From NCBI GenBank assembly GCA_905178155.1, contig CAJINV010000010.1, positions 2,596,466 to 2,660,465 on the forward strand: a stretch of 64,000 nt of DNA, read 5' to 3'. Shown here in pieces: positions 9,612 to 60,062 of the stretch (position 1 is the first letter of the stretch; each line of letters begins with the position of its first letter). Position numbers and translations under genes: made by a program. Origin of the DNA: Amoebophrya sp. A120 (Eukaryota > Protista > Dinoflagellata). Under the pieces are notes generated by a model. That model made no database searches and was not told where the DNA came from. It saw only the letters and a program-made list of their open reading frames with translations.

Positions 9612-12600
9612 ATGTCCCACCTGCTCAGCTACCTGAAAGGCCTGCGACAAGCCCACCCGACGTGGACGGCCGAGAAAATCGTGAAGAAGTGCGAGCGGGA
9701 GCTGAAACTGATGGTGCGGAGTGGTTGTCCTGGTGCTTCGAGGAACCCATCTACATCTTCACGGGCAAGTTCTCTACCTGTGGTCCCTACGTCATCCCCT
9801 ACTCCACGTAGTACCGAGCTATACCACGTAGCAGCGAGGAAAGACGGGAAGAGTTTTATTCCCAGAGATAAAGGAAAAGTAGAATCACTACAGGAAGAGG
9901 AAAGGGAACAAAGTAATAGCATGGCAGATCTTGACGACGACGACATCAGGGCTAGTACCGCTAGGGAAAATAGTACAGCCTGCTCCGCTACACGTTCAGA
10001 GGCGCGACCTGCTGGTGGCACTACTACTAACACTCCGCGGCAGCGGCAGCAGCAGCGGCATGCACATGATTGCCCCACGAAGGAAGGTGGACGAGACGAG
10101 TCGTGCTTTTATCTTTTCAAATACCTGAAACACTGCTCGGACTTCGGCGACCCCCGCGTGCGGGAGGCGCGCGGGATATGGATGTGTCAGGTTTGAAATC
10201 GTCAAAGTTGAAATAGTTTGTCATGCATAAAATGGATGCGAGTCAGAAGCCCACTTATCAAGCGGCGCATGACAAATTTTCATAGAACCGGAGTCCAGTT
10301 TGTCATGCTGTTTGGTCACAGAAGACTGCTTTTGTCATGCTACTTTAGCAGCTCTATTTCAAACCCTGAACAGGCTCACAATCGGCCTCACTTGCCTACT
10401 CTGCAAGACAGGCACTTTGTGGGTTGCATTTTATGCATCACAAACTATTTCAACTTTGACGATTTCAATCCTGACGCTTCCATACGGGATCATTTTGGAT
10501 GACACCCTGGAAAACATCGTCTGCTACCTATCAAGATGACAAGTCTGCACAGCGCCACCCTTTACTTTGTTTTAGTATGCATGGCTTCAAGCGGATGAAC
10601 AAGCGAATACAACAATAAAGAAATAGAAAATTTTTTTCGTGCTCGCTACATATTCCCAGTGGAGTTGCTACTCGACACCAGCGTTTTCAGCGTTGAAAGC
10701 TTGAAGGACTCTGGCGCTTATTTTCACTTTGATTCTGCCCGTTTGACTTTTTCCACGTGTACGGCGAGGGGCGCTGCGTTATCACACAGAAAAAAGCTGG
10801 CAGGGCATATTTGTAATGCAAAAATGAATACACAAAAGGATCTGTATTGCATATCCGAAACAGCATGCTATGGGGCCACCCATGACAAATTTTCTTGTGT
10901 ATTTATTTTTGCATTACAAAGAAGTATGCCCTGCCCGCTTTTTTCTGTGTGATATGCGTTGGGCGGGACTTGGAGACAGTCTTCCGGGCGGGTGCAGCAG
11001 GAGCAGCAGCAACTGACATGATTGAGCCAACAAGTACAATAGCGAAGAGTCGTACTCGTTTCCACCGCCCGACCGAGCTACAAGAAGTTGGGACCACCTC
11101 AGCCACAACGAAGGAAAATACTGGTACGTCTGACGATAGTGATTTAAGTGTAATGGTAGAGCACAATGGTGTAGTGCCGCGAGCAGATGATGACCACAAA
11201 CCTGGAGCTGGTTCATCGTGCTCGCAGAAGCCAAAGATGATGACGCCGGACTTGTTGTCCACCTCCACGTGGTGTCGTGCGAGTCCCGGTCGTGCCGGCA
11301 TTACGTTACGAAAAAGTTCTGTCGCGCCGGCAGCTGCTCGTGTTGAGCATCTTGGCAGTTTCGAAAAGAAGTATGACGGGTGCCTGATCAAGGTTGTCAA
11401 CGTATTGCAAGGAAAAACTTCTCCTCCCCACATTGAGAGGAGCTTATGTTTCCGAAAATTTGTGTTGCTGATTTGTGGCCACAAATCGCATTTGTCTGGC
11501 AAGAAGACAAGGGCAGAAGCTGGCGCCGCCTTATGGAAGCGATTTGCCATGCTCTTGGGCCTAGAGGGCAGCCGTTTGCAATGCTGAGCAACTAGACCCA
11601 AACGCCCCGACCTAGGCTGGGGATCTGGCCGCAATGCCTTCCCGCAATACAAAGCGCATTTGTGATGTACACAAATCCCCCCGTATTTCACCCCCAGGGG
11701 GTTGCGGACCTGGCAAAACCGATGAGTTCGGGCTGCTGACTGTTCCACCTCTTCCGAGAGCGATCATGTTACGCCTCACGCCTCACAAATCCAGCGTCAG
11801 AAATCCCGTCTCGATATGGGGAGGGGGGATTTTTCCTTACGATGCAACGTCGGCGGGCGTCGGGGCAATTCCCGGATCGACGGCCACAAGGCCAGTTTAC
11901 TCATATCCACCAACAACACGATTGACGCGGGGCGGGCCGAGGTGTTTCGTTCGGGCGGAGGACGAGGACCCCGGCAACGTTCTTGCGCCGACGAGGTCCG
12001 TCCACGTTCTGCTTCCATGAAAACGGGGCTCTGCAGCTCCGGAGCTGGGGTCGTGGAAGTAGGAACCTATAATCCTGAACGCAGGAGGTCGTGCAAAAAA
12101 GGAGATGCTTATCATACTGGTTCTCCTACTCCTGCTGGAGCAAGAAAACCAGAAGGCGAAGTAGACGCGCTCGAGCCCAAAGTAGAAGAACTACCTGAAG
12201 CGGAATCGAGACGTTGCACGACTTCTTACCTTGACTTGTTCGAAGAGGCGCTCGAGCCTTACCTGATGCGGAAACACACGACCCGCGGAAGAACGTCGAG
12301 TTTCAAAGACGGTTATTTATTCGAGCAGACCTCCCGGCCTGAGGACGAGACCGAGAGGAAGATGATGATCGAGGGGAATAAGAATTACTATTGCAGTCGA
12401 GAACAACCAGAAGCCGCCGCGGACCACGATGATTCGTTGACGACGACCGCGTGCCTGGACGAAATTTTTCCTCCGGGCTGGACCTTTCTTTTCGAGCTCT
12501 ATGCATTGCAAAAGTAACGCACTCGTAGAAATGCATTACAAATTTCCTCAGCATGAGGAAGAAATTTCTAATGCTGATTTACCTATAAGAACAAGATTTG

Positions 12601-15600
12601 TAATGCATGATTGCAATCCGAGTGCGATACTTTTCTTTGCACAGGATAAGCTGCTGCATCCAGCGATGTCCGCCACGGTGATTCCGATAGAAGAGACGCA
12701 GCTGGTTTTTCTCGGGGCGCGCCGGCACGCAGACTTTGAATTGGTCTGCCCCCGGCGGTGGATGCAGCAGGACTGGTTTGGAACATTTGGTGTTATTCCG
12801 GGGAAAATAAATCATGTCGAAAACCACACGACGGGTGGATCTGGAGCTTTCGAGGTCCGCCCGAGCCGCCCGATGTTCTCGTTTCCAACACCGCAGCAAT
12901 TCCCGGAATTTACCAGCCTCCGCCAGGCCTACGAGTTTTGTCACACCCTTTCCTGGCGGGAGGAGGGTCTGGTGTACCGCTTTGGTAACAGGTTCTGGAA
13001 GCTGCGAAACCCAAAATTCGTGTTCTTGCGGGAGGTCAAAAGTGGCGAGGTCCTCGTGTCGTGCGACGAAAGTACAAGAAGTGCGACGTCGGTGGTGCCA
13101 CTTGCGGTAACATGTACTCCTCCTGGAGGTTCTTCTTGTGGGGAGGACGAAAACGTCTACTCTTTTTCTGATATGACGACCAAAGTGGCAACACTAGGAG
13201 CCACAGCACGACCGACAAACTATAATTACGCAAGCAATCCCCTATGAACGAACAAAATACAAAAGTAGAACATTGGAAAATCTACATATCTCGACGAACC
13301 GATCAAAAATTTTCGTTCAACTACTCATCAATTTTGGTTCAGCTACTGATTAATTTTTGCCATATGACCGAAAATTTCTTGCACATGATCAAAAAATAAA
13401 ACGCACATGATCGAAAAATTTTGAGTCATGACCGAAATAGATGATGGTTCTGAGTGCAGATATTTTTGGTTCTAGGTACTTGCTCTTTTGGAAAACCGAC
13501 CTCTTCATCCTGGACACCGCGACCTCGCACCGATGAACCACAACTATTCAGATTTGTGTGTGTGGGTCACAAATCTGAATAGTTGTGGTTTACAGCAAAA
13601 CCACAACTTTTGACGGGAAACCACAACTATTCGAGTACTCCAAGGTGTTTGAGAATTGCGGAAGCGCTTTCCGCAACAAAATCGGAAGTGAAAAGAGATG
13701 AGGAAACGCATCGGACGGCATGCAGTGGCGGGGCGGAAGGTTATGTTTTTTTTCATTTTGTTTGCAAAGAAGACGGCTACTTCTGCTAAGACGGTTCCAT
13801 TGCGATCAGACTCAAGCCTAGGCGAAGGCAATGGCAAACAAAGGTGATCATGCTTTCTGATTCTGCCTTGTTTGTTTCATTATCATTTCAATATCAATGC
13901 AAAAACAATACAGAACGTCGACGTTGGAGGTGGTTGCAGTTCATGGAGATGTACGTTGAGAGGAAGCGATGCGAAAGAAAAGCAGTTCATGGAGGTGGAG
14001 TTGAACTTGGACGCGGTCGAGACTGGAGGCGCTTCGGAGGTGATCCGCCTGTTGATGCTGTAGCACCGCAACTTCGCCATCGCCGCGATGATTCAAGCCC
14101 TGACGTAGCGGGCGGCGTGAAGATGTTGCGTTGTGATACTGAGATGTCAGATGTAGACAGAAATGTGAGAAAGAGAAAAAAGATTAAGATAAACACGAAG
14201 ATAGAGATAATGATAAAGAGTCAGAGTAACTATTTCGGTATTAAGTTTAAGAAGCAGTGTGTGGAGTGAGTGCGAAAGTGCAAGCGATGTCTGAAACACT
14301 TAAAGTCTCGCCGTCCCCTGTGATAGTAGTGTGCTAGTGTCATTCTCATTCCGAGTAAAACTCTGCCTGTGAAGAAGAAGGCGCAGTTGCTGCCGAAAGA
14401 GTAAGAGTCGGTCACAACAAAATCAAAACAACAGTAATGCAAACGCAATGCTCCAAGTGCGTGCAAGTGCGCGACTGTCGTTTGAGTATGGGCATGAAGA
14501 GGACTATGAGTAATGAGTGAGAGCACAAGAAATGCGCCTGAGTCTGAACGTCGCGGATTTGTATTTTGATTTGTTTAGAATTAGAATTAGACAACTGCGC
14601 GCAGTAGTGTTCGAGTCGGAACCTGCTCTGTGCGGTTTTTGCGCTCTCGTGTTTTGGATCGATATCGAAGTCGATTTGTGGCGTTGTGCATTTCGAAATC
14701 GAATTCGAGTTGAGTTTGTGTCTCCATTTGTGAAAGAGAAAGTGACCCTGCGATGCACACGTGCCTCCCATTGCCGGGGTGATTTTGATCCGCTTCTTCA
14801 TCTTCTTTTTCATTTTCATCATCATCTTGTTCTTCTTCCGCTACTACTACAACTACTTCTACATGTGCTTGTGCATCTACTTCTACATCTAATACTATTA
14901 CAAATGGTCAACGACAATGTCAAGGCCAAGGTCATACCCATTCCCATTGCTATCGGTCCGATAGCGTTAGCGTTAGCGATTGCTATCGGTACGAAAACTA
15001 ACGAGAACGTGGACGACCAAAAGTAAATATGATTACGAGTATGACTACCACTATGGGATGATAACTATCACTGTGCTGCGTCTACCTCTGCAGCTGCGCC
15101 TGCAGTTTCAGTTGCGATTGCAACTTCATTGCCTGTTTTCATTTTCAGGAAAACAATAATAGTGAAGAGTCAAGTCGTTGTCGTAGTCGTTGTGGTGCAC
15201 TTTGTGTTATTGGTCCGAGTTTGTGGCTGTGCCCGTGCGATTGCGATTCCGCCAGATTTATTTTTTTGCACAAACGCTTTCGTTGCCACCGATGGCGGCG
15301 CCATCCTCTTCATCTTCCGCAGCTGGTCCTGCAGTTGAGCCCGCAGTAGCAATTGAACCTCCGCCCCCACCTCAGCAAACGTGCCCGATCGCAACTGCCG
15401 TCGCCAACGCGGTGAACATGGACGACGTAGTGTCCCTTTTGGAGGATGCTGAGAGTCGCTTCAGCGACCGCGGAAAGCAGGCGACTTCGCGGGAATTGAA
15501 TGAGCCAGTGCTAATCCACGAGCAGAATAGAGTGCACAACAACAGCGCAGTAGGCCGCAAAGGCTGGTGTCGACTTCCCCCGAAAAAAGCCAACCTGAGC

Positions 15601-18600
15601 AAAATGTACCAAAAGATGCACAATGAACCAGCAGGGCGAAATCCTAACCAGGAGAAGCTGCGGAAGTTTGCAGTTGCGGAATTACGGGCGCGGTTTGACG
15701 TTCCTGTGCATTTTGACCGTCTTCTCGTCGCGGCTTTGAGGAAGAAGAAAGAACTCGAAGAAGATGAGGCGGAGCGACTAGATCCGGAAAACCTTGGCGC
15801 ACCAAAAGCGAAGAGAGTAAAGGTACTGGGTAGTAGCTGTTGATATTCATACTTGCGTGTAGTTGTACTTGTAGATGTAGATGAAGATGCACTCATGATC
15901 TGGATCTCCGATTCTTATGCTCGTCATTGCAACGTCGATGCCCTCCTTACCGGATCCGGTGCTGTATGCTAATATCAGAACTCTTCAACGTCTACATCAG
16001 GTAAATAACTTCGTCGACGAGTGGGGGAACTTTTCTCTCGCGAAGCTTTCTAGCCTGAAAACTAAAGCGGAAAAATACGAGTACATCGGCTACATCTTGG
16101 CGACGTCCAGCGCAACCTCGGCGAAAAAGGTGCGAGTGCGAGATTCGCCTTTCACTACTTCTCCTACACTAGCAGTGGCCGCGGCTCCACTCCGTCGGTC
16201 TCGGTTTGTGCTTCAGCTGTAGCGCCAACATCTTCTACTTCTAGCCGCAGTTGCGTTTTCTTTTTCATTTCCTTTTTTACTATCAGATATGCATGGTCTA
16301 GGTCTTGTGCACGAAGAAGCCCTACACCAGCCTTCAGACTGCTAGGGTTTACCTGGGTGCATTTGAAAAGAGTGGTACTGTTGGCATGTGGGAATTGTCA
16401 TGGTGGTTGTAGCAGAAGTAGTTGTAGATGAAGTTGCAGTTGCAGACGCACAAGAAAATGAAAAAGCACAACGCGCGGTCCTAGGATCGTCGCCGCCTTT
16501 ATCATTATCCGGGAATAGCTTCACAACAAACAACTACGACAGATCCAGTTACTGCAGAACCTTTTCCAAATGGAGCAGCTGTTCAGCAACAAGACGCGGT
16601 ACCTTGGGTTGGATAAAGTAGCACTTTCTGGCGGAGTTGTTAACGTCGCTGACAACGTGATGACCCTGCGATCCGGTCCGGGAAGCGCGCCGGTGATGGG
16701 CCCACTACTGGGCATCAACAAAGACAAAAGAATCCAGTACACGTACGAGAAGTTGCCTTCTCCGCAAAAGCGGCGCGCACTACTGACGCTGAAGGGCAAC
16801 CTGGAGTACGAGGACGCGCGGGAGAACAAGGTGGTAGCAACGAAAAAACAACTGAACTATCAGGACGGGCTCCGGATGTTGGCGCAGCGGTTGGAGGATA
16901 AAATTCTGCGGGTGTTGAATTTACGGGACCGCTCGGACGTGGAAGCAATGGCGGGTATTTTTACATCTCTACTGGACGTTGTTGCACTTGCAGTCGCAGT
17001 TGCGGGTGTGAAAATGAACGTGAAACAAAAATGATTCCGCCACTCGTGTGGCGCTTGCAGCTTTCCATGCGGTTGAGCTAGGGCGTTTGTTGCATGACAG
17101 AAAACTTGCAATACCAATTCCAATGCGTATGCGAATGCCTATGCAAATGCAAATGCAAAACCGAAATAAACACGCAAACTTAAATCTTAATCAGACCTCG
17201 ACATCAAGCGCCAGGAGGTCGTCATGGAGATTGCAAACGACCTGGACGTCGTCCAGTTTTGGAACGCCCAGGTGAATGACAATTTGGTGAACAGGGTCGA
17301 GATGAAGCTTTCGTCGGCCGCGTACAAGCGGGCAATCGACGATGGTGCCGCGGCGGCGTCTTTGAGCTGTGCTGCTAAAACACCCCGACCAATACTGGTG
17401 ATCCGTGTCGCCCCCGACAGCACGCCGTTCAAAAACGGTTCGTCTTTCACGTTGGAGGCGATTATCTACAAGTGCTGCCCGGTCACGAAGCAGATCCATC
17501 TCAAGCACATCGTGCCGTCGGCGAAGTCGCACAGTGGAGGTGCGTACACCACCATCGCCGACATCTATGAACTCCTCGCTACTGTTTGCCCTTTGCCGGG
17601 CTGCACCACGGCGGCGTGGGAATCCGACCCACTGTGCATCATGGTGTGCACGAGTGACGCTGCTGCCGACGTGCTGGCCGGCTTTCGCAGTCTCCGCCGG
17701 ATGAACTACGTGCTCCAGCTGAAACGCCAAGAGCAGATCAAAAATAAAAAGAGGAAAAAATACGTGGAGTTTCATTTTTGTCAACAGGTGTGTCAACTCC
17801 ACCAATATCACATATTGACCGGCGAAATCGTCGAACAGATAAAACACGACTTCCCCTCCTTCCTGGAAGGTATCAACAGCATCCAGAGGTCGATGCACCT
17901 CTGGGGACCAAAAGATAAAAACGCGCACAACTACGTCAACATCCCGAAGGCGGCGACGCACCGGTGGATGACCTTGTACCCGACGCTCGAATGTTTAGCG
18001 GCAAACAGAATCGCGATCACCAGAAACATCGAACAAATCGACGCGATGAAGCGTGAGGAGGGGGAAATGAGGGAGACGTGCAAAAAAGCGAAGCTGCACG
18101 TCGCCGACGAAAGGTTCTGGCGAGTAGTAACGGCTGCGCGCTGTGTGATGCAGGTCGTACACGAGGCCTCCGTTAAAGTACAGAACGACCCGGACGTTGT
18201 CATGAGCGACGCGACTTTGCCGAGCATGTTCCCGCACCGACCGCGCGCGAAGACCGTGGACGAAATCCTGGACTTGATCCGCCAGCGGATGTATCTCGGT
18301 GATGGCGATCCCCTGCAGGCCCGCCTGCTCTTGTACCTCGCAGTGAGACTTCCGTCGCGGGAGATCCAGTTCCACTGCTATCCCTGGATGTTGACGCCCC
18401 TCTTCTCGCCGGACGAAAACCAGCGCAAGGTCCACGCGGAAATGTTGCTCGCAACCGAGCCGGATAACAGAGACTCGTTCATCAACTTGCTCTGCACGGG
18501 AGTGTACCAAGAGTCGCTCCAGAAGATGGTTAACGGTGAGGTGATGCCGCCGGAGTTGTTCGCCGTGCTGGGGCCGGTTTACGTGGCGATGATTCCCCAA

Positions 18601-21600
18601 ACGCAGTTCACCGAAAGTTTACACTCTTCGACGGCGATAGAGAAAAAGGTGGCGCCGAATATCGGCGTTGTGCGTGCTGGACTTCGTGTTGCTCGCAATC
18701 GGGGTGACCACATCCAGTACGAGGAGTTTAAGGAGCTGCAGGAACAGTGGAAGTCGCGGTTCGACATGCGGCGGAAATCTGCGAAGGAGTACGACAAGAC
18801 GGAGCTGGAGGAGCTGGTTAGTTACGACACAGAATTTTTGCATCCGTGGCTCTCAAAGTTGTATGATGTTTTCGACGAGTACTTGTTGAGCAACCCGTTG
18901 TTTCCGGAAAAAGTAGAAACGGCGCAGCTACAGAAGATAATCTCCGGCCCCATACCGCCGAACAACAAGCTCGTCGTCCCGCCGGTGGTGCTGCGACACC
19001 TTGCAGAATACTCCACTCCGCTACCGATTTGGAAGCCGGGGCGGCCGGTCAACCTCTTCAAGGAGAAAGCAGTTTATGTCGGATTCCTCATCTGGCGGGA
19101 ACCGGAAAAGAACCAGTTCATTACGGTGCCGGACGTGTACTACTGCGTTTCGCAAGAAGGAAAGCTGAAAGGGCACGTATTGCGGTGCCGGCAGATTCTC
19201 CAACCGGACTTTGACGAGGGCATGACGTTCAGGAGAAACTTCGAGCAAAAACACCAGCCCGATTATCCGAAAGGAAGAACGCAGTGGTGGTGCTGCAGTC
19301 CGTACGACCGCGTCCGCACGTTGTCGCAGTGGGTACTGGACCCGAAGCCCAGCAGGGAGCGTTACTTGTTTCGCTTCAAGATCGCGTGCGTGACGGGTTG
19401 CAGGTGGTGGGAGGACAAGCACACGGTGCTGAAAAGCGGCATCCTCTTCAGCATTCGGGACGACGAGTGGCTTTCCACGACCCTGTCTTACTCCAAGCTG
19501 TTTGTGCCGGCGGCGGAGAAAGCGCGATCAGAGGAGGTGATCGTGCAGGGACCCAATGCGAAGGTCGCGGTGCGAACCACGCGCGAGGTGTCGTGGTTCG
19601 GGTTTGACCAACGCAAAGCGGTGCCGGAAAAAACGATGTCCGACGCGATCGACCCTGTGTACTTCATCTTCCGACCGGAGAAGTCCAACTGGGTCGCTAC
19701 GATTCCGCTAAAGAGATCTACGGGTGAAGCGTCGGCGGAGCGGAAGTCGTACTCTGCTACCACCGCCGGGCATCTGCAGAGTCAGGACTTAGTGATGGCC
19801 GCGCGGCACGAGTGCGTTAAGCTGGTCTGTGGTCACTTGAAGGAGCCCCAGCCAGTGCCAGACCAGGACCAGGAGGATGAAGCCTACGCGGAGCTGTCGA
19901 AGTACATCGACGCCACCAAAGACGTGGACTTCTATGAGTCGCTGGGCGTTGACAAAGAGCAGTACAGCGACAACTCCGACTCCGAGCCGGAGTAAAACAC
20001 TTCTTCCCGTAGCAGTAACATCTTCGCCGCGTCCGCAGTGTCGTATCTTCCTCATCTTCGCCTCGACGAAGAGCACAGACCAGTAGGCACGTGCCGTCGA
20101 AAACATCAAACAACAACAAGAGTCACGGAGGTGCATGTTTTTATTTGTATACTTTACTTCGGAGCGGGTGCAGGTAAGAATAGTCTCACCGCAGTGGAAG
20201 CTGCGCACTTTTTGATAATTATGTATCACATGCTGCTGTAAGTTAAAACTAATCAGAAAGTTAAAGTTTCGATACACACTACTAAAACACGACGCGAGTG
20301 CGTCCATAGGAATGTAAAAATGCACAGCTTTTTATGGTCTTCGCATACGCGTGCACGTGCGTGCGCGCGCGCAAGACGAATTACTTCGAATGCAATAGGT
20401 CAACACGCATCTTCGTTGTTTTGTTTCAGCCAAAAATTGACATTGAGGGGAAAGACGCAGTCTAGTCTTCGCCGTAGCATAGAACTTTATTTGTATGATA
20501 GCGTGCACAGCAAGAGCAGTACGAGATGAGCACTTTTTTCAGGTTACACCAGGCTGCGAGCGAGGACGCCCGACTCTGGCATCGCTGGTGCCGACAGAAA
20601 AACAAGCGCGATCGCGATAGCAAGTGACTGCGATAATTATGATTCTATTTGAAAGTAGTGTAATTCTTGCATCCCGTACAGATTAGCGCAGCAGTATACG
20701 AGACAGAAAGAGCTGAGACGAGCTTAACAATTTGAGTATCTGTGTAGGCGGTTGGGTGATAGAAGTTACGCACAACGTGCGTGTACGCAAGTAGCTTGTA
20801 AATGCCCCAGCGATAGAGAAATTGAAAGATGTACCCAGTTCCCCCTGCCCTTGTAAATCCCGAAATCACCAAAAAGATCTGGCTATTTTCCCACCCGATA
20901 CAGAATTGACGCGTAGTAGTTTCTAGTGCGACGGCCCGCAGTTTCTTATCACATCGTAGAGGAAAGTTGTACGTAGGCACTACCCCAGAACACACGAAGC
21001 CCACGAATTTTGTACCCGAAGATCATTGTAAAACGTCCGTCAAGACACGAAAATCATGTACCGAAATGCAGAAAATTCAGAGGTCGACTCTCATATTTGA
21101 AATGAAGAAGCAGCCGCGAAGAGCCTTCAGATCCTGAGAATGACGCGAGATTTTGACCGAGCCTTGTGAGGTCTGAGCCGAAAATGCACAAGAAAATGAG
21201 AAGACGACGACCAAAAATTCTTGCTCAATTAGAAGATCATCATCGGTTCGCGGCGCTGTAAATAGCGCTCTCGGTCTTGAAATTTTGTCTCACATGTCGA
21301 CGATTTTCCTTCAAAATACGACGTTCCAAAAGTTGGGATTTCTGGTTCCTAGAGATTCAACTGTGATTTTTCATCAAAAACCCAGAAATGTAGAAAAAGT
21401 CCTAGGACTTTTTCTACATTTCGCACTTTTTCATGATTTTTGCAAGGTCAAAGTCTAGGAACCAGAAATCCCAACTTTTGGAGCGTCCATTTTTACTTCT
21501 GAATTTTGTGATTTCTATCCAATTTGCGTCATCTATCCAACCAAAAAACACAGTTGTACAGGGAGAAAACTTAAGGCTGAGTTGAAAAAAAAACCGCGTT

Positions 21601-24600
21601 TTGAAGATGAGTTCGTCCGAATCTCTGCTGCATTTCCTCGATGAGGAAGAGGCCGTTCTGGCTCTCGAGGCCCTGCCCACCGCGATCGAGAAGGCCAAAA
21701 CCGGTGCCCCGGACGACGTCATCGCGCTGTGCGACGCCATGAAAAAGGTCCTTCCGACGAAGGAAGAGGTCGCCGCGGTGCTCAAGGCGTGGCGCGCCGG
21801 AAAACTGACCAAGGTAATCATATATAGCTTTTACGAAGTGAAAAAATAGGAACGTTTCTACTTTTTTATAAAACATCTTGATCATACGAAGCAACATCAC
21901 GGCTTGTATAATAGGAGTGTTTTTGTTTTTTTATGAAAAGCAGAACATAGAAAGGTCGTATCTCACTAACAAATCAATACTTGAAAACTGTGTCAATCAC
22001 CTCTACAGGCCGACATGATGCAGTTCTGTCAGAGATTCGTCGATAGACGATTTAAACAGGGAGCGACGTTACTCCTCTCGGTGCTCAACCGTTTTGGACA
22101 ATCGAAACTCAACCCCCTCCGCTCCTTGGCGCACATGCACAAGCTGTTGGGGTACATGGAATCCGGTGAATACGTCGTCGTCCGCGGTATATTCCGTAGT
22201 TTAGAACAAGCAAAGATTTTACTATATATCGCAGCTTAGAGCAAGAAAAATTTTTACTTTTTTCCTAGCGCGCTGTGCCGCGGAGCCGTCTTTCGTAGAA
22301 TAAAAGCGGACCACTTCCCCCCCCCCGTTCGTGTACAATGCCCACCCTCCCACTCGAAAATAGGTAGCATCAACGTCATTTGCAGTGCTGCGGCTTACTT
22401 TCTTGCCAAGTGGGAACTGCACGCCTTTCGCTTGCGTGCAAACAGGTCCGACACATGGCCACACTACTACCCAAACGAAAGGAAGAACTACCTCGCGCAA
22501 AAAAAAGCGCTGAAAAAGCGGGTGAGTGAGGCCTTGTGCACTTTGTTGCACCGCTACCCGCCCGGGTATGCAAAGGCAGTAGTGCAAGCAATTAGCAACC
22601 CCGACAACAAGCCCTGGTACGAATGCCCGCACATCCCTGCCTGCCTCGCTGCTACACACCCTAGCGAAGTCGCCCCCGGAGAACGCGCAATGATTTTTCG
22701 CTCCTGGGCCAATGACAAGTTCAAGTTGCGGCGCGCATTTAACGCGCCGATAATCAAGCACAACAGCCGACCCCTGGCTGAGATGAGGGACGAAGATGAG
22801 GATTCAGACTGGGACTCATCACCTCCTATTTGTGTTGTTGAGTGCCGACAACCAGAACATCATCTACGATTCAAAAAAGATATTATCGCCATTGCCGTCG
22901 ATCCCACGGCCCCGGATGGTAAGCTGTCCCTCGCCGCGGAGCAGGAAGTTTTCTACGAAGTGATTTCCGGGTATCACTCCACCCGGGCCGCCCAGGAGCT
23001 CGTGAAGCGCGAGGACGGTTCCAACAAGTTCGAGCGGATGCGCATGCGGTATTTCTTACTACTGGTTTCTGTTTTACATACAAGTACAAATTCACTCGCG
23101 CCACAAGTCGTATCTCGCAGCCGCATCTCCATGTGCACAAGATTGAAGTTTTCAGAAATAGTTTAAGATCGCAGTCGAAGAAGATTTTGTATGTTTTCAC
23201 TCCGTGGAAAGAATGCTCGTGTCTTTTTCTCTTCAGAAATTCCGCTCATGAGGCCGAAACCTGAAGACGAACTGCAGCACACTAAAGCATGACCACGAGT
23301 ACAACCACGACGTATACACAACTATAACGAAATCGAAAGCAAAAGCTTTGGTGAAACGGAGCCACACATTTCATCTCAGGTACACCATCTACAGCTCCGA
23401 GTTCGCCAAGTACGAGGACTTATGCAGAATCTTTATCAGGCTCTGCAACGAGAGTAACTCGACTTTGACAACCACACATGTTGAAAAACTGTTGGTTGTT
23501 TTTCCCCAAGTATTAGACCCGCCCAGTTGGGTATTTTATGTTTTTACTGATGGCTCTGGTGATACAGATACTCATACTGATAGTCGTCGTGATAGAGATG
23601 ATGATGGCGCTTACGGTGGCGATGCGTCTTGCGTCATTTTCTAAATTTAAAAAGAAGAAGATCGTGATCGTGGGTGTCAGTGTCACTACTTCTTGTCACA
23701 GCTTCACCTTCTCCGCAGCCTCGACCTGGTATGCATAGTCTCGCTGGAGATAATGCATCAAGGTGGTCAAGCAAGCATGGCCTGAGAGCTGCATGATTGT
23801 TGTCAAAGCAGTGCCGGACCTATGTAGGTGTCCGATTAGACTCCTTCGCGGAGTATGGCTCGTCACTAGGTGCGGCGGACACGACCTCTTTCCTTCGGGA
23901 GTGAAGGTCATTCGCGCAGTTCGGACCTTCTTTTCGAATGCCTCATACGCAAAGCTGAAAACTCGGTCCTTTGCCGCTTTGCCCTGTGCCCGAAGAGTTT
24001 GAAGTCGCTCGACGATAAAGTCCTTCGTGGCTTTAACGGGCTGGATGGGGACCCACTTCAATGTGCCGCGCCCGCCGCTGTTCTGCGCTAATTTAGTATT
24101 GCCGATGCGGATCTGCGTTGTTTGGATGTCCTCCAGGTTGAGGCACCTCACATCCATTCCACGCCGCCCGGTTAGGCAGGCAAGAATCCACGCGAACCGG
24201 TACTGCTTACCGGCTTCGGTTTTCCTGCCGGTGCTTTTCTCCAAGTGCAGCCCAAATCTGCGGCAGTCCGGCATGGTCATGGACCCACTCCGCTCCTCCG
24301 CGTCGACAATGTTGTTCTTTCTGGTTTTAGGAGCTTTGCTCTTCTGCGCCCCCAATCGCGCCTTGCTTTTTGATGTCACCTTAGGACGCGCCTTCATTGC
24401 TACTTTCTTTGTTCCGCTGCGTGCGGGCTTTGTACGTCGCTTTCCCTTTGGCATGATCGCTTCGTGACAGAGGATGGTGGAGGGGACGTTCTGTGATGTG
24501 TTTTAAATTTATTTCATGACACAGAGACGCCTTTTTTTTTCACATATTGAGCTCGCAGCGACATGAAGATGTTTCTCAAAACAACATGACAGCTGCACCG

Positions 24601-27600
24601 GGAATGGGTCAAACACAACAAGGAAAACGCCGACGCCCGTGTGGACCTGTACGAGTTCTTCAGCGTATAATATCTACCATCATTGTTTATGTTTTTTTTT
24701 TCCTACACCAGATTAGCACTAGTGTGAGCCTGGGTATATTGTTGGAAGTACTCAGATCGTTATCGTAGTCGTTTTTATATTTAAATTTAAATTTAAATTT
24801 ATTACAACTTCATGTTCATGCTCATGCTCATGGTCATGCTCATCTACAATTACTCGCAGGCCAACGTCGACAACATTGCGAACAAAAGCGAAGTGGAAAT
24901 TTACCTGCAGTGCTGGAGAGAGTTCGCCTCCGGTGGCACCCACGAGTGGGCCGAGGTCTGCAGGAACAAAGGTGTCGAGGACGACGAGTCGAAGTACCCC
25001 AACCTCTACCGGTACGACATAACTACTTGATGCGATGAAATGACTACCAAGACAGAGCAATTCTGTGTGGACAAAACTAGAAAGTAAATTCGACGGTAGT
25101 GGAAGTGGAAGTGTTATGTCTAGCGGAAGTGTCATGTCTAGCTTTAACTTTCTGGTCGCTGTCGGATGAGTTGTTCAGTTTTAGTTGCAAGAGAAAAGAC
25201 TTATACTTAATCTCAAACTATTTCTATCAATATTCCAGGACGAAGGTCCTCGATAGTGGTCTGAAGTACCAGCTCCCGGTCATCAAGGACGGCACGTTGT
25301 ACTGCGTCATGAGCTTGGTCTTGGGCGAGAACAAGATCGGGTTGTCGAAGAAGCAGGTCAAGCTGCTGATGCACCTGTGCCAGTTGAACATGTCGCGCCG
25401 CTTGGACTGTGCCGATGAAAGAAACAAGATGGTTTTGCACTTGATCGTTGAGACCGCCCGCAACGCCGCGCGGGACATCGATCACGAAGGGCAAGTGGGT
25501 GCGACCGTGTCGGTATAAGAATACTACTTGCGATTTTGAGTCGATCGCCATGTCTACTTAGCGTCCTCATGCATGGAGCGTTTTTATCTATCACAATTAT
25601 AGACCAGACGATGACCAAGACCACCACCATGATATTACTATTTGAATTGGCATTTGCGTATTTATATTTTTATCTATCACAGACCATCGAGAGCAAGAAC
25701 GACCTCGTGACGGCGATGCGCCCCGTGGATGCCGGATTGTTGTGCGACCAGCCGTGGTTGTTTTTGGCGGAGGACATTCAGTTGGAAAAGCGGCGCAAGA
25801 TCGTGTTGAATGACATTTTGCGGGTCATCAAATTCGACATGAAGATGTTCGGCTGCGACAACTGCGGTGTGTGGACGGTCGTCCAAAAGAGCATCCCCGT
25901 CCGTATTGATTTGTTTTTTGACGTTCATGTTCATGAGTAGCACTTTGTGTTTTTAGATTTAGTTTGCGCAATTCATGAAGTCTGATTTCGCAAGACGACA
26001 TGTGCATGAAACAACGTAAAAAAACAGAGCCGATCGCCAATTTGGCCCCCAAGCACCACGTGATCGTGGACAGCAACCACTTTGATGAGCCCCAGCGTGG
26101 CGTCATCGAGAAGTCCGTGGCCGGCCCGCAGGTCGCCAAGAAGAAGCAGCAGATGCAGTCCGTGACCGAAGAGCAGATCCAGTGGGACAAGGATATTAAG
26201 GAGGAGATGCGGTCCGCAATCAAGGCGTCCATCGCGGCCGAGAAGGCCCGGCACCAGTCGGCCAAGAAGATCGACAAGACGGATCAGCTGCAGCTGGTGG
26301 AAGCTTCCGGTAAGGGAAAGGAAAAGTTTGTCTCCAAGATGGAGCGCCGGCAGAAGTGGTATAGTGATCGCATCGACACGCTGACCTCGGAGTTGAAAAG
26401 CGCGGAGGAAGAGAAGTTTTTCTTGACTACCCTCCTGCAGCGGAAGCTGTCGGTACTGAGTTTCACACTTGATTATGAGATGATGATGATAGGTCGAAAA
26501 TCTGTGTTCTAGATCTAAACCATGAGATATTCATATTGCTTTTTTAAAGAATAAGAAAGATCAGTTGTTCCTGCAGCTTCAACTTCAACTTCGAAACGCA
26601 AACGTATCTTCAGATCCCGGCCGAAATCATCTCGATCGATGTGCCCCACTACGCCTGGGAAGACACGGACATGGACTTTGAGCACGACAACACCATGGTG
26701 GTGTCGGTGGAGGATATCGAGAAGATGGCCGTGGTCCCGGGTCGCTTTCCGGTCGAGATCGAGTGGGGTCCGAACCGCGTGGTGATGGACGACTTGGAGT
26801 ACGACAACGACCCCGGTCAGTACTGCGACTTCATGTCGGACATCGTGTTGGAGTGGAAGCCGGCCAGGTCGATTTCGACCCCGGTCACGTTCAGGGGAAG
26901 GGAGCTCGATGCGGGGGGATATGTCATCAAGTACAAGATGCCCTGCTACACGCCCCCCCCGAAGGACGATGATGAGCCCTCCCAGTCCGCCTCCGACGAC
27001 ACCAAGGGTAAGAAGAAGAAGTCCAAGAAGAAGAAGTTGTCCAAGAAGAACCAGGCTGCGTTCAAGTTGATCGAGAGCGGCAACTTTGGTTTCGGCCAGG
27101 ACAACAAAGCGGCGTCCCAGGACTTCAATGCGGCCTACGAAGAGATGTCGGAGGAGGTGTTCGAGGAGGAGTTGAACAAGGACCGCACGTCGTCCTCCGC
27201 GGCTGCGTCGTCCTCCGCCAACACCAACATGCAGACCGGCGGTTCTAGCTCTTCTTCGTCGAAGCCGAACGTCAACGTGAAGGGCAAGGCGAACCCGAAG
27301 GCCAAGTCGATGAAGAGCATGAAGTCCATGAAGTCCGCCAAGCGCGAGAAGCTGCTGCCGTCCGACGACGAGGGTGAGGACGACAATGCCACCTCGTCGA
27401 AGCACAAGGGAAAGCGATCCCGTGGTGACAGTCTGATCGATGAGGACGACTTGTAATGTTAATGTAACTTTACTAGTACTACTTGATTATGTTGATGAGA
27501 AGGTGATCTTCAACTTTTTCAGAAATTAATGCATGCTGATGAACGCTGCAACTGCAAAAAAATCTACTGCTACTTCTACTTACTCTTACACAAAACTGAT

Positions 27601-30600
27601 GCTACTAAATGGACTAGATGTGCGGTATTTTTCTTGCGTGAAGCATGTGTTTGTCTTCATGCGACACAACGCGAAATTTTGTCTATGTCTTCGCGCGCAC
27701 GATTTTCGAGTCACTGCTTTCGCATTCCGCAAAGTCAGCGACGAGAAGCTACTACGACGGCGAAGTTTGGCAAGATAAATTATGGAATTACTACAACAAC
27801 AACAGGACAGCTCGAAAGCCAGTAGATCTTCGGTCGCTGTCTTAGTCATGTCATATTCAACGACCTATACTAATATCTAAGAAAGAGCCTCTGCTATTTC
27901 TTGCGCCTTCCGGAGCGTTGTTGATTGTGCCTTGACTTAGACCTGTGCCGAGTTCTAAAGCTATCTCCCATGCTTGACTCGAAGCCAGGCGCAACTTCGC
28001 ATTGGCTACATGATACGCTCTCACCGCGGTGCTATGATTTCCTAGTCTTTTTTGTTGTGCAAATAGCTTCGGTCTTGCAACTTTTACTTTCGTACTTGTT
28101 GATGTTGTCTTTCAACATCATCAAGAACAATATAAGTATTATGAATTTCGTATAGAAGTTGAAATCAACAAGTACTGATAGAGCTGGGCACGTAAAATTT
28201 AGATCTTTCTTTTTTTGTTTCGCACTACCTATCGGAATATCAATTTGTTTTCTATCAAGAAATACTTCATCTCTTTGTGCTCAGCTCGACCTTTATCCTG
28301 CTCTATCGTCGACGCCACTCTAGATCATGTCTAGTGATGGTGTTGGCAAAATAACTAGAACTTCACTTTATTGCTGCTTGTCTGTGTCGACGACGTAGAT
28401 GTTTCGCAGCAAAAACGTTTTTACGGAACGGTCACTGTATCATCTGCAAACGATTTCGTAAATCTCTGCAGAGGTGGAGCTGCGCACGCGCAACCACCAC
28501 GGCGGGCAAGAGTTTGAGTCAGCAGAAATTTTTCGTGACTTGTCTATCCGATATATGGGAAAATAAAATGGCACTTTCAATATATCAATATGAATATCTA
28601 TATTCGAAGTTTGTTTTAATTTTATTTTTATTGTTACTTCTACATTATGTTCTTGTTAATGATAATGATATCACATTCACTGTTCTAAACCTCTACGGAG
28701 GCGATTCCACTGTCGATGCATTTTTATGCGGTGCCGAAGTGCGCTGCATAGCCAACCAATCCGAAGCTGTCGGACTAAACGTGTATGTAAAAATCTTTTT
28801 TACTTTCACCTAGGTCTTGGCAGTTTCAAACACTTGTTTTCAGGAGAAGTTGAGGAAGATCGATTGTTGATTTGTGCGTAGAAACGGCGCTGCACCAGAG
28901 GAAACCGCGGACACAGAGAGAGCGCGCTTGCACTTGTTACGACTGAGCTTCCACATCAAAGAAACTTTTGTTGATTCAACTTTCTCGATTCATCGCTGAC
29001 GATGAGAACAACTTCTTTCCCATAGACACTAGCGGATGCGCGTCCGCACCTTCGCGTTGGTCTCGCCCAGTATCGTAGAAGTTGTATCATATAGATATAC
29101 GTGCGTGGCGCACATCCACATGATAAAGCTCTCGGTTGTTGTTTTCCTAATGACATGCAAGTATTGCAATTTCGGTCAATTGTCCTCAAAAAGGTCAAAA
29201 GTTGTGGTTTTGCTGTAAACCACAACTATTCAGATTTGTGACCCACACACACAAATCTGAATAGTTGTGGTTCATCGGTGCGAGGTCGCGGTGTCCAGGA
29301 TGAAGAGGTCGGAACGTCCAGAATGAAGAGGTCGGTTTCCAAAAATATCTGTACTCAGAACCAAAAATATTTGTACCTAGAACCATCATTTTTTTTCGGT
29401 CATGATCAAAATTTTTCGATCATGTGCAAAATATTTTTTGATCATGTGCAAGAAATTTTCGGTCATATGGCAAAAATTGATGAGCAGTTGAACGAAAATT
29501 TTTCATCGGTTCGTCGAGATATGTAGATTTTCCAATGTTCTACTTTTGTATTTTGTTCGTTCATACAATCCCCGTCCCGGCGCACCAACAGGCGAAACAG
29601 CTTTTTCTGCCAATGTTTTATCCACGATGAATCTGCGTGAGCCCCCCGATATCCCAGCAAAGTACATCGAAGCGGTCAACCAGAAAACCAAGACCGCACG
29701 TATGACCCGGTCAGACGTTACAATCTCAAACGTTACAATAGAAGCTGGATTTTGTATTGCATGATGAGAATGACAGATTCGGCCAGCATTCCTCTTTCTG
29801 CAATACAAATTTTGCCAGATTGTAGTGCGGTTTGGGACTCCGGAACTTGTCATGCGCAATCCTATGGGACGCGGACGTGGCTAGATAATGCACTTCTTGC
29901 ATCACAGATTTCCATATTCTATTGTAACGCTTGAGATTGTAAGCCTGAGCAGGTTTTTATAGCACGGCAGCGACAGGTGGCAAGAAGTCTGCTTTCCCTT
30001 ATCCCGATGAAAAAAGCTAGGATGCTTCTACTGTGATACGTGTCTGTGTGTGAAAATACATATATAATGGTGGTCTGAAAGTCTCTAGTAGAAGTGATGT
30101 GGGACGGCAAGACCATTCGCGTGGAAGATTTTTAAGTACAAGCGTCAGCTTGTTTGTTTGTTATGTGCGCCCTCACACGACACATTTTTATTTGAATGTG
30201 ACGTGGTAGTTTTTTCCATTGTGATAGTCTTCGCGCTCGACGAAGACTGGCGGGGCGTTGCCGCCTATCAAGCGGAAAGAAAACATGGTCCCTGTTATTT
30301 CCCCAGCCGACCTGTCATGCAAGTTTGCAGGCTTAGTACGTAGAAAGTGCGGCATGGGCTGGCACATCGACGGCATTCTTGTCTAGGCTTGGCTGTGAAG
30401 AATTCGTCTTCAGCCACCTTGCACAACATAATATTTTCTGGCATGTTGGCGAAGCGACTTTGATTTGTTCTGCATCATGTAAACCAGGTTGCTTTTCTTG
30501 CTACCCACAAGAAAACTCTGTTGCGGCATATAATTGCACAGATTTCATTTTCTCCTTTTGTCTAGTACTTTGGGGCGAGGACCACGTTTTTGCAGAGGAT

Positions 30601-31585
30601 GTCGTGCGGTTCCCCCAGATCGGTCCGGCGCTTCAGGATTTGGGTCTTGGGGACCACAGTATGTAGTTGTCTATTGCTTGGCGGATCCTCAGAGGTTTTT
30701 ATTGTGGCTGGCGCGCGGCTGTGCCGGAACTCGCCATGATGCGGGAGGTTGTTTATATCACTTGGTCAAGGGGGAAGGCGTAGGACCTTTCGCGCGGGTT
30801 GTGCTTACAGGGCGCGCGCTAGTGCGCTAGTAGAGTGGCTTCCTTCTGTGTGAAGGCTTTCCTTTTTCGGGTATTCACATACACTGCTCCTGCTCGAGTA
30901 ACAGATGTTCGTGCTTCGCGCATTGGTCGGCAAGGTATGGGCTACGTGCGCTCGGCACGGCGATTCAGGGACCCGGAGATAACGAGGTGTAGGCGCTGTT
31001 GGAAGCGAGGTTGTTCTGCCACTGGGTATGCTGTGCGGGTTGGATTCGGTCGGTTGCCTGTCTTCCCTTGGGGGCAAGTGGGGCTGGGGCTGGCGCTGTT
31101 CCCCCCATTCAACCACCGGAGGTGGGGTTCTGGGGGGTCTTGCCCTTGGGGCCAGGTGGTGGTGGAGTGGGTCGCTCCCCGCTATGGAAGCTAGGCCCGG
31201 CCTGCTACGCCCAGCCCCTTCAGGCTCGATCCAACGGGCCGCTTGGGTGTTGGCTCTGTCTGAATAACACTCGGAAGGAACGCAGCGAAAATATTTTCTC
31301 CTTTTCTCTCATATGGGGCGGGGACCACGTTACGTTTTTACGGAGGATGCCGTCCGCTTCCCCCAGAAAGGTCCAACGCTGCAGAAATTGCGACGGCAAC
31401 TTATCGAACTAGTGAAAACTGCCTCTACAACCCCCAGAACTTCTTTGAAGACGCTTGTATTGAAAAAGGTCCCAACAATAATTCCGATAGATCAAACAAC
31501 GCCCATCTCGCACCTTTTTCCAGAAACACGACAAATAATTCGCCCTGCAGAACAGCTAAAATTTGCGTTGCAAAATTGCATTTAG
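9612..31585 (+). CDS. T4 Rnl1-like RNA ligase (covalent nucleotidyltransferase), multi-exon, interrupted by the 16-kb transposon
   Basis: Spliced reading gives LFKY..SDFGDPRVREARGIILD..IVCYPFDFFHVYGE, motif I FEKKYDGCLIKV (about 11370), LLISTNNTIDA, WTFLFELLHP, LVFLGAR, motif IV REEGLVY and motif V FWKLRNPKF. Resumes in frame at 29574 and ends ...LQNCI* at 31585 (3' exons less certain). Confidence 0.8.
10177..10484. mobile_element. Introner, family E (long TIR, about 58 bp)
   Basis: TATGGATGTGTCAGGTTTGAAATCGTCAAAGTTGAAATAGTTTG and its inverse; direct repeat CGGGA; joins EARG|IILD. Confidence 0.9.
10529..10734. mobile_element. Degenerate introner
   Basis: TATCAAGATGA / TCACTTTGATT; direct repeat CTACC/CTGCC; removal restores the ligase motif VCY|PFDFF. 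Confidence 0.7.
10780..10954. mobile_element. Introner, family D (TATCACACAGAAAAAAGCTGG TIR)
   Basis: Direct repeat TGCGT; related to 38222-38392. Confidence 0.9.
11403..11844. mobile_element. Introner, family C (AAGGAAAAATCCCCCCTCCCCATATC TIR)
   Basis: Direct repeat CAACG; joins KVVN|VGGR; body similar to 45840-46159 with an extra internal segment. Confidence 0.85.
12500..12648. mobile_element. Introner (short family)
   Basis: TATGCATTGCAAAAG / CTTTGCACAGGATA; direct repeat AGCTC/AGCTG; joins FLFEL|LHP. Confidence 0.85.
13243..13614 (+). repeat. Left TIR (372 bp) with 21-23 bp subrepeats and internal hairpin 13536-13590
   Basis: Inverse match to 29194-29565; ATGAYCRAAA units repeat at about 22 bp; perfect 23-bp stem AACCACAACTATTCAGATTTGTG with a 9-nt loop. 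Confidence 0.93.
15292..19995 (+). CDS. hAT-like DDE transposase, multi-exon with GT-AG introns; main exon 17195-19995
   Basis: Motifs in order: IRVAPDSTP (D1), VCTSDAAADV (D2), CQLH (CxxH), ATHRWMT (RW), TQFTESLHS (E). Intron 16955-17194 is phase-compatible; upstream exons are less certain. The 8-bp TSD fits hAT. Confidence 0.75.
21320..21487. repeat. 168-bp palindrome at the exact centre of the transposon
   Basis: Perfect 38-bp core GAAATGTAGAAAAAGTCCT|AGGACTTTTTCTACATTTC (21385-21422), plus 34-bp outer arms (21320-21353 and 21454-21487, 1 mismatch) on the same axis. Confidence 0.95.
21607..27456 (+). CDS. Large multi-exon protein with ParB/Sulfiredoxin-like domain and Lys-rich C-terminal tail
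   Basis: IIAIAVDP...FYEVISGYHSTRAAQEL resembles the ParB-N/Srx yeiidGhHRxxA motif, followed by LCNESNSTLTTTHVEK. Downstream GT-AG junctions are phase-compatible through to the stop at 27456. The junction near 22190-22446 is unresolved. Confidence 0.6.
23696..24454 (-). CDS. Tyrosine recombinase (phage integrase/Xer catalytic domain) with basic N-terminal tail
   Basis: Catalytic set present: LTGRRGMDV (R), NTK (K), SHTPRRS (HxxR), LSGH (H), LMHYL (Y); single intact 252-aa ORF. Confidence 0.88.
   Translation of the reverse strand: MPKGKRRTKPARSGTKKVAMKARPKVTSKSKARLGAQKSKAPKTRKNNIVDAEERSGSMTMPDCRRFGLHLEKSTGRKTEAGKQYRFAWILACLTGRRGMDVRCLNLEDIQTTQIRIGNTKLAQNSGGRGTLKWVPIQPVKATKDFIVERLQTLRAQGKAAKDRVFSFAYEAFEKKVRTARMTFTPEGKRSCPPHLVTSHTPRRSLIGHLHRSGTALTTIMQLSGHACLTTLMHYLQRDYAYQVEAAEKVKL
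29194..29565 (-). repeat. Right TIR (372 bp) with hairpin 29218-29272
   Basis: Reverse complement of 13243-13614, with offsetting 22/23-bp unit differences. Confidence 0.93.
29701..29961. mobile_element. Introner, family F (GTTACAATCTCAA TIR)
   Basis: TATGACC..TTACAATCTCAAACGTTACAATAGAA and its inverse; direct repeat GCACG. Confidence 0.8.
30000..30226. mobile_element. Degenerate introner
   Basis: TATCCCGATGAAAAAAGCTA / TAGTTTTTTCCATTGTGATA; direct repeat poorly preserved; joins LLSL|ALDEDW. Confidence 0.55.
30266..31349. mobile_element. Degenerate introner with two alternative right ends (30601 and 31349)
   Basis: Left end TATCAAGCGGAAAGAAAACATGGTCC; right end GGACCACGTT..TTT..GAGGATG occurs twice; direct repeat CCGCC/CCGTC at the distal end. 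Confidence 0.55.
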
Positions 31586-59685: not shown

Positions 59686-59783
59686 GGTTCCTCTCCTGCC
59701 CCGGCAGATCAAATACAATCTGAGGACCAGTTTTTGCTGGGTCCCGAGGGCCAGGCGAGCCCCCCAGCGGGTCCGACGATACT

Positions 59784-60062
59784 TATCCTGAGTAAAAACG
59801 TACCCACACCAGAGTCAAGATGGGGATTTTGCAACACAAACCTAGGAGTTTTGGGACTCACGCATGACAAGTTTCTGTTTGTAAGGTAGTGCAAGTTAGT
59901 AAGGGAAGCCGCATCACAAATCGACCTGCTGATCCTGTTCACAGCATCACAAATTCCAAAACACGATTGGAAATGGGTCTCATCGGGATGCGCATTACAA
60001 ATGTCTTTGTCATTGCAAATCTGCATTACAACTCTGGGGTGGGTACGTTTTTACTCAGGATA
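59784..60062. mobile_element. Introner, family B (copy duplicated with its flanks from 57561)
   Basis: Same sequence and ATACT direct repeat as 57561-57839. Confidence 0.9.

Follow-up and report, generated by a model that had tools for sequence, protein, structure and literature searches.

What kind of element lies in the middle of this locus, and by which enzymes may it move? The window, that is, the whole 64-kb stretch of Amoebophrya sp. A120 DNA analysed here (contig CAJINV010000010.1), contains an element of 16.3 kb (13243-29565) with long terminal inverted repeats (TIRs) and three predicted genes. The first-pass annotation took it for a transposon of an unfamiliar class that combines a hAT-like DDE transposase, a tyrosine recombinase and a ParB-like protein. 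Our best reading is that the element is a composite transposon in the style of the ciliate elements Tec and Sardine, in which a hAT-type enzyme takes the place of the Tc1/mariner one. The ends of the element are defined by the following features.

13235-13242, plus strand: left copy of the target site duplication (TSD), CAATCCCC, 8 bp
13243-13614, plus strand: left TIR, 372 bp; its outer 87 bp are near-identical to the right TIR, its middle is variable and its inner 119 bp are identical
13363-13437, plus strand: subterminal repeats ATGAyCrAAA with a period of about 21-22 bp, mirrored at 29395-29466
29194-29565, minus strand: right TIR, 372 bp; its 11-6-11 and 23-9-23 palindromic sites (arm, spacer and arm in bp) are inverted relative to the left ones
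29566-29573, plus strand: right TSD copy, CAATCCCC, 8 bp

The 372-bp TIRs and the 8-bp TSD reported at first pass are both located. The octamer occurs twice in the window, both times flanking the element, and when the element and one TSD copy are deleted in silico, an open frame from 12441 continues past the site over some 60 more codons. Due to this continuous frame, the element probably landed in a host exon. The two TIRs are 83% alike overall, with several indels, and identity is concentrated at the outer end (85/87) and the inner end (119/119). The subterminal repeats are likely transposase-binding sites, a role taken from hAT biology as described in the available text of PMC4763223. The genes inside the element are modelled as follows.

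15292-19995, plus strand: gene 1, predicted transposase, 1,290 aa, exons 15292-15822, 16001-16129, 16543-16954 and 17195-19995
21607-27456, plus strand: gene 2, predicted, 1,068 aa, 10 exons, with ParB/DUF3723-like motifs at 22822-22995 (PPICVV ... YEVISGYHSTRAAQ)
23696-24454, minus strand: tyrosine recombinase, 252 aa, intronless, antisense within predicted intron 4 of gene 2, with a K/R-rich N-terminus

All three models are free of in-frame stops and 12/12 predicted introns are GT-AG, in accordance with the earlier statement that the traced exons show no obvious disruption, the exon models being predictions.

Gene 1 probably encodes a hAT-type transposase. The candidate residues, chosen by eye, are D432 (17416), D512 (17656), C557xxH560, R614-W615 and E831 (18613), and their order D-D-CxxH-RW-E is the hAT order. 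D432 stands at the end of the predicted first strand and D512 within the residues TSD. In Hermes the catalytic residues are D180, D248 and E572, and C265 belongs to the CxxH. Compared with Hermes, the stretch from the second D to the CxxH is 28 residues longer in gene 1, while H560 to W615 spans 55 aa against 51 from H268 to W319; the spacing from D512 to E831 is 319 aa. Beyond these motifs lies a C-terminal extension of about 400 aa with no family assigned. According to the available parts of PMC5225508 and PMC4763223, hAT and MULE enzymes have in common a CxxH and a W that are located between the second D and the E; in Muta1, W401 is close to the catalytic E419 (PMC5225508), and the Hermes residues are H268 and W319 (PMC5225508, PMC4763223). 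A MULE/Mutator assignment was rejected, as the W lies 216 aa before E831, unlike in Muta1, and no MULE family is among the Atlas matches listed. In addition, the available text of PMC4763223 names a TSD of 8 bp, and TIRs that carry subterminal repeats, as hAT hallmarks.

The family-bearing matches listed for gene 1 in the ESM Atlas are hAT, DUF659, ZBED1 or DUF7963 clusters with scores of 0.87-0.89, and 9 of the 10 best of them agree in family or clan. The nearest clusters carry PF05699, the hAT dimerisation domain; Pfam itself gave no match in gene 1. The single-sequence model of gene 1, of low confidence (pLDDT 42.9), places strand-strand-strand-helix-strand at both aspartates, in RNase H order. 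The Foldseek check proposed at first pass gave 0 matches at E 0.001 with the low-confidence models of gene 1 and gene 2 (pLDDT 44.4), and VIA-align with the same models gave generic helical matches only (Z < 8); both results are no evidence either way. PHROG and NCBIfam searches gave no family for gene 1 or gene 2, the single match of gene 1 to PDB sequences is due to chance, and no relative of it was found in viral contigs (7 stretches). No CxxC of a BED zinc finger is present anywhere in the predicted 1,290-aa model, the finger being common, not universal, in hAT. On the whole, the motifs, the 8-bp TSD, the subterminal repeats and the Atlas neighbours make a hAT-type transposase likely, not proven. 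The earlier DDE claim has the support of the motifs, the TSD length and a lead-level Atlas match; no homologue or matching fold was found to confirm it.

The tyrosine recombinase is confirmed on firmer ground. Its product matches PF00589 (E 8.7e-7, 29.3 bits against a cut-off of 27.1) and PHROG integrases (E 3.7e-10 and 6.4e-10). The R-K-HxxR-H/W-Y catalytic set is complete, and R98, K121, H200, R203, H226 and Y235 are invariant in 3/3 aligned sequences of 50-54% identity. The PF00589 match and these six residues make its predicted identity solid. Tyrosine recombinases are rare in eukaryotes. Among its relatives, the EukProt protein g2071.t1 of Amoebophrya sp. AT5.2 comes closest (56% identity, E 1.2e-72); a second one (52% identity) belongs to a cluster containing an MMETSP transcript, showing that the family is transcribed somewhere. 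No relatives were found in the metagenome (594 stretches) or in viral contigs (154 stretches). Against phages the matches are weak (E 0.1-1), with 6/9 rows annotated as integrase, and of 44 stretches in prokaryote genomes the one that matched was rejected, only the K/R-rich N-terminus being aligned. A protelomerase reading was rejected on comparison with the protelomerase motif, as the canonical HxxR is present. There is no PF11917 match, and the protein is of the compact PF00589 type rather than a DUF3435 captain.

The inner ends of the TIRs carry palindromes that are absent from the first-pass annotation and new in the present analysis.

13536-13590, no strand: left 23-9-23 palindrome, perfect 23-bp inverted arms and a 9-bp asymmetric spacer, candidate recombinase site
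13581-13608, no strand: left 11-6-11 palindrome, asymmetric spacer ACAGCA, preferred candidate crossover core
13618-13632, plus strand: one more copy of the arm motif, in direct orientation, immediately inside the left TIR and not the right one, resembling an accessory binding repeat
29200-29227, no strand: right 11-6-11 palindrome, inverted relative to the left copy
29218-29272, no strand: right 23-9-23 palindrome, inverted relative to the left copy

The two palindromes overlap in each TIR, the decamer AACCACAACT is common to all arms, and both fall within the sole fully identical TIR block. When the element was block-shuffled 20 times, no inverted arm exceeded 11 bp, and that length was reached in 1/20. 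The 23-bp arms are thus well outside what chance gives, which does not hold for the 11-bp arms by themselves. Sites of tyrosine recombinases usually consist of inverted arms of 11-13 bp around a spacer of 6-8 bp (available text of PMC3212892). From this geometry we infer that the TIR palindromes may be the substrate of the element's recombinase, and the presence of palindromic sites inside both TIRs argues that the recombinase belongs to the element. A search for the TIR arm pattern in the metagenome returned 27 loci, most of them bacterial hairpins of high GC content, and 0/27 resemble the element by tblastn or blastn.

For the product of gene 2, a ParB fold is plausible, at about even chances. 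The ParB profile is a standard hidden Markov model (HMM) built from 53 bacterial sequences. In a test of the ParB core motif chain (PPICVV, then YEVISG..RAA), the gene 2 open reading frame (ORF) ranks first of 722 window ORFs (25.5 vs 17.7), and its score exceeds 500/500 local shuffles. Its Atlas neighbours with a family are DUF3723 (47% of cluster members) and ParB_N (11%), with scores of 0.78 and 0.77. The GxRR position reads GYHS, so the arginines of the ParB CTPase are replaced, and a CTP clamp is unlikely from the sequence. Of the earlier ParB claim, the two core motifs in their order are retained; the replaced arginines and the weak HMM result given below speak against it. Further along, gene 2 encodes a CxxC, a helical stretch of charged residues and an acidic tail rich in K. 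Its exon GC content at third codon positions (GC3) is 0.64-0.87 and the pLDDT of its model is about 30 at the ParB-like motifs. Intron 4, which holds the recombinase, is 1,062 bp long, and more than one donor site is possible where exon 4 ends. It is possible that gene 2 is actually two separate genes; a 3' half starting at the nearest ATG before exon 5 was rejected, as an in-frame TGA follows.

Searches for relatives of gene 2 were negative. Exon 3 has none in viral contigs (9 stretches); in 201 bacterial genomes it gave short matches in 28, the best of which (E 3.7e-4) has an internal stop, and these were taken as noise. Pieces of gene 2 against phages and plasmids gave only tblastn noise at E 3-10, and DUF3723 was not found in the 201 bacterial genomes or in controls. 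DUF3723 is described as a conserved Starship accessory gene and a recurrent partner of Starship recombinases in the available parts of PMC10104507 and PMC9156397. These same parts contain no DUF3723-ParB link by name, and a literature search gave no paper with both terms. Upstream of gene 2 lies one more structure.

21313-21494, no strand: intergenic palindrome, 182 bp, spacer-less, 91-bp arms (78%) that match perfectly over the central 38 bp; gene 2 begins 113 bp downstream

It is far from what shuffled sequences give (z -12.6, reached in 0/200 shuffles). It could be bound by the gene 2 product or serve as an origin; an old foldback insertion is another possibility. A high-copy MITE was rejected, the depth there being 42-47 with no TSD seen by eye. 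An Rfam search of 13000-30000 gave 0 matches.

How does this set of genes compare with known systems? The Tec comparison made at first pass is apt, and it extends to Sardine and Thon of Paramecium. [quoted passage not shown] The TIRs of Sardine and Thon are 425-700 bp long and palindromic with an oriented unique region, and those of the element are likewise long and palindromic with asymmetric spacers. The hosts are alveolates in both cases. The ciliate elements differ in having an IS630/Tc1 transposase with 32 aa from the second D to the E and TA-bounded ends, whereas the element has a hAT-like enzyme with 319 aa and an 8-bp TSD; they are also smaller (about 6.7 kb vs 16.3 kb), and the recombinase nested antisense in an intron and the ParB/DUF3723-like gene are found in the element only. 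Because the design is shared, the element is a variant of a known one, and the notion of an unfamiliar class is not upheld. A literature search for a hAT element with a recombinase returned only ciliate elements, Cryptons and Starships, its coverage leaving out most subscription papers and Repbase; within the literature covered, the DDE and tyrosine recombinase design is known for ciliate Tc1/mariner, and no description for hAT was found.

With hAT elements such as Hermes, Ac, Tam3 and Kat1, the element shares the 8-bp TSD, TIRs with subterminal repeats and the order and spacing of D-D-CxxH-W-E. hAT TIRs are usually short. The element differs from them in its 372-bp TIRs, its 16.3-kb size, two extra genes, the 400-aa C-terminal extension and the missing Pfam hAT match. 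Starships resemble it in being large eukaryotic elements with a tyrosine recombinase, and the weak Atlas neighbour of gene 2, DUF3723, is a Starship accessory gene. According to the available text of PMC10104507 and PMC9156397, Starships depend for their movement on a DUF3435 captain located at the 5' end, and the repeats at their ends do not represent target duplications. The element was rejected as a Starship, having an internal PF00589-type recombinase, a DDE-type gene and a true TSD. It was also rejected as a Crypton (recombinase only, no TIRs, 4-6-bp direct repeats), as TIRs and a DDE-type gene are present. The 2-micron plasmid shares with it a recombinase, inverted sites in long inverted repeats and a partition-like protein, and the Tn4430/Tn3 family shares a transposase with a separate recombinase. 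Unlike these two, the element is chromosomal and single-copy in one DNA set, with no evidence for a free circle or replicative transposition.

Starting from the directly observed ends, TSD, interrupted host frame, intact recombinase and palindromes in the identical TIR block, we propose a composite TIR transposon that combines hAT-type cut-and-paste, its own recombinase acting on the TIR palindromes and a gene 2 helper; on balance we consider this account somewhat probable. The hAT-type transposase would move the element by cut-and-paste, a chemistry suggested by its motifs. The recombinase may recombine the inverted palindromic sites at the inner TIR ends and so flip the 15.6-kb core (13609-29199) within one copy; between two copies, whether arranged in tandem or joined as a cointegrate, it would resolve dimers. 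Gene 2 might supply a DNA-binding helper of ParB/DUF3723 fold that keeps the element, once excised, inside the nucleus or attached to chromosomes until reintegration, which is a tentative step.

Several results weigh against this account. For gene 1, the Atlas scores are below 0.9, a level that the tool rates as leads, and 108-154 of 256 features are shared, against 170 typical within a family. Pfam found nothing above chance level in pieces of gene 1 and gene 2, and two homologue searches for gene 1, with 6,982 and 7,997 candidates scored, gave none. For the palindromes, an 11-bp arm by itself did arise once in the 20 shuffles, and as anything within a TIR is automatically duplicated in inverted form, the inverted orientation of the sites alone proves no function. 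No second copy or relative with the three genes together was found, the depth being that of the flanks. A recombinase relative is annotated in AT5. For gene 2, the HMM aligned only YEVISGYHSTRAAQ at -1.0 bits, a score reached by 44 and 54 of 1,000 shuffles, and hhalign gave a probability of 5% to ParB. The motif-chain test was designed after the motif had been seen and needs a gap of 38 residues (2-12 among the training sequences), and its score of 25.5 is lower than that of every training sequence (minimum 27.9). The gene 2 Atlas scores (0.77-0.78, recognition 2151) are within the range of shuffled proteins, and exon 3 has no true relative among 1.84 billion representatives, its 3 matches being repeat artefacts.

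Some properties of the recombinase gene would fit a different history, that of a one-off capture, in which a large hAT (or MULE-like) element took up gene 2 as cargo, the recombinase came as a separate insertion or passenger, and the palindromes serve the transposase or are incidental. The recombinase is intronless and antisense in an intron, its GC3 is 0.65 against 0.82-0.87 in gene 2 exons 5-10, and an AT-rich 11-bp inverted match flanks it; moreover, it has homologues while none were found for genes 1 and 2, and the element is single copy by depth. However, that 11-bp match is of low complexity and recurs in intron 5, and no longer repeat or TSD bounds the recombinase. All three frames are stop-free, recombinase-type palindromes lie in the only identical block of the TIRs, and the design of DDE enzyme, recombinase and palindromic TIRs recurs in ciliates. 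We regard a one-off capture as unlikely.

The copy number of the element bears on two further explanations. The DNA run sampled is possibly the source of the window's assembly, and its contigs drop rare forms. Over the element core they have depths of 41.6 and 42, against 44.3-46.6 for the unique flanks, and no variant letters are listed within the element. The read-depth check suggested at first pass thus gave a value that is not raised, and depth equal to the flanks means one copy at at least 90% identity with no sign of amplification in the sample. Because the identical parts of the TIRs interrupt the contigs, core inversion is invisible either way. RNA runs over 11500-31400 gave 0 reads in X4 and X5 and 40 repeat-like reads in X6; the range includes the flanks, so this is no expression test.

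These depths argue against a cycle like that of the 2-micron plasmid, which combines FLP/FRT recombination with Rep-STB partition. Here an excised circle would be amplified during replication through recombinase inversion, multimers would be cut to monomers, gene 2 would partition the circle, perhaps via the central palindrome 21313-21494, and the hAT enzyme would reintegrate it. Two inverted candidate sites in long repeats, a third arm copy, the recombinase and a ParB-like gene do mirror FLP/FRT/Rep-STB, and there is the spacer-less palindrome ahead of gene 2. Nevertheless, in addition to the depth, none of the 15 joints listed, beside which there are 32 more, links both ends of the element in these contigs, no replication origin was identified, and the ParB arginines are replaced in gene 2, so this cycle appears improbable. 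Similarly unlikely is a transposon-plasmid hybrid, in which the hAT enzyme would integrate the element, and between insertions a circle would be amplified by recombinase core flipping in 2-micron logic and partitioned by a ParB/DUF3723-fold protein. Its recombinase and palindromic-TIR unit would be portable, having joined Tc1/mariner in ciliates and hAT in Syndiniales, with a recombinase and ParB-fold helper arising independently in Starships.

A further scheme is transposition of the Tn3/Tn4430 type, with single-strand nicks, a cointegrate and recombinase resolution at the TIR sites. Replicative copying should leave several copies, however, and the depth shows one. Gene 1 has also retained CxxH and W, motifs with which hAT enzymes carry out double-strand excision through hairpins (available parts of PMC5225508 and PMC4763223), and this favours cut-and-paste of the hAT type over replicative chemistry of the Tn3 type. 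We thus find this replicative scheme quite improbable, and the episomal or cointegrate stage suggested at first pass has no data in its favour.

If the composite reading holds, the DDE and recombinase design is extended from Tc1/mariner to a hAT-type enzyme, which suggests a swappable module. To our knowledge, the role of the recombinase in Tec/Sardine-type transposons has so far been a guess; with an intact 252-aa recombinase and short explicit candidate sites, the question becomes directly testable and might yield a Cre/FLP-like tool. If gene 2 shares its fold with DUF3723, Starship accessory genes would be linked to a protist element. In addition, the available text of a published genome study of the Amoebophrya lineage reports only two putative transposases (PMC7789003), and to this lineage the element adds an apparently autonomous DNA transposon. 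One text supplement of that study, in its available part, has no mention of transposase, recombinase, hAT or integrase.

The host sequence around the element has features of its own. Host genes in the window are interrupted by recurring introns, about 250-270 bp long, which have inverted ends and whose borders are non-canonical. The 12 predicted introns of the element are all GT-AG. Introns similar to those of the host genes are the Amoebophrya introners in the available text of PMC7789003; together with the recombinase relative from Amoebophrya sp. AT5.2, they make an Amoebophrya (Syndiniales) host likely. Repeats of this type, with ends TATCAA..GTCTGGGTCTGGAA / TTCCAGACCCAGAC..TTGATA, are located at 5532-5795, 6758-7030 and 7092-7345, with many more at 34000-57000, and they interrupt an LRR/F-box-like host gene and others. 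If the host can splice the whole element out like inverted-repeat introners, the interrupted gene would stay intact. The interrupted host exon (12648-13242, 29574-29710) contains EEGLVYRF...WKLRNPKF, which is reminiscent of RNA ligase nucleotidyltransferase motifs; Pfam gave no such match. Some of the repeats near 11500-12800 and 29430-30090 have summed depths of 14,000-53,000.

Unrelated to the element is a high-GC bacterial hairpin repeat, TGATCATGCAGTTGTGGTT...AACCACAACTGCATGATCA, that recurs in the metagenome contigs L001, L003, L004, L006, L007, L011, L014, L015, L017, L018 and L025-L027. Elsewhere in the window, outside the element, a perfect 30-bp spacer-less palindrome is present at 49073-49102. 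A 300-nt direct repeat of 100% identity (57501-57800 and 59724-60023, 2,223 bp apart) occurs together with two similar ORFs at 57645-58424 and 60846-61529, both ending in EDPKDNTFLLRRR; the repeat and the paired ORFs are a recent local duplication.

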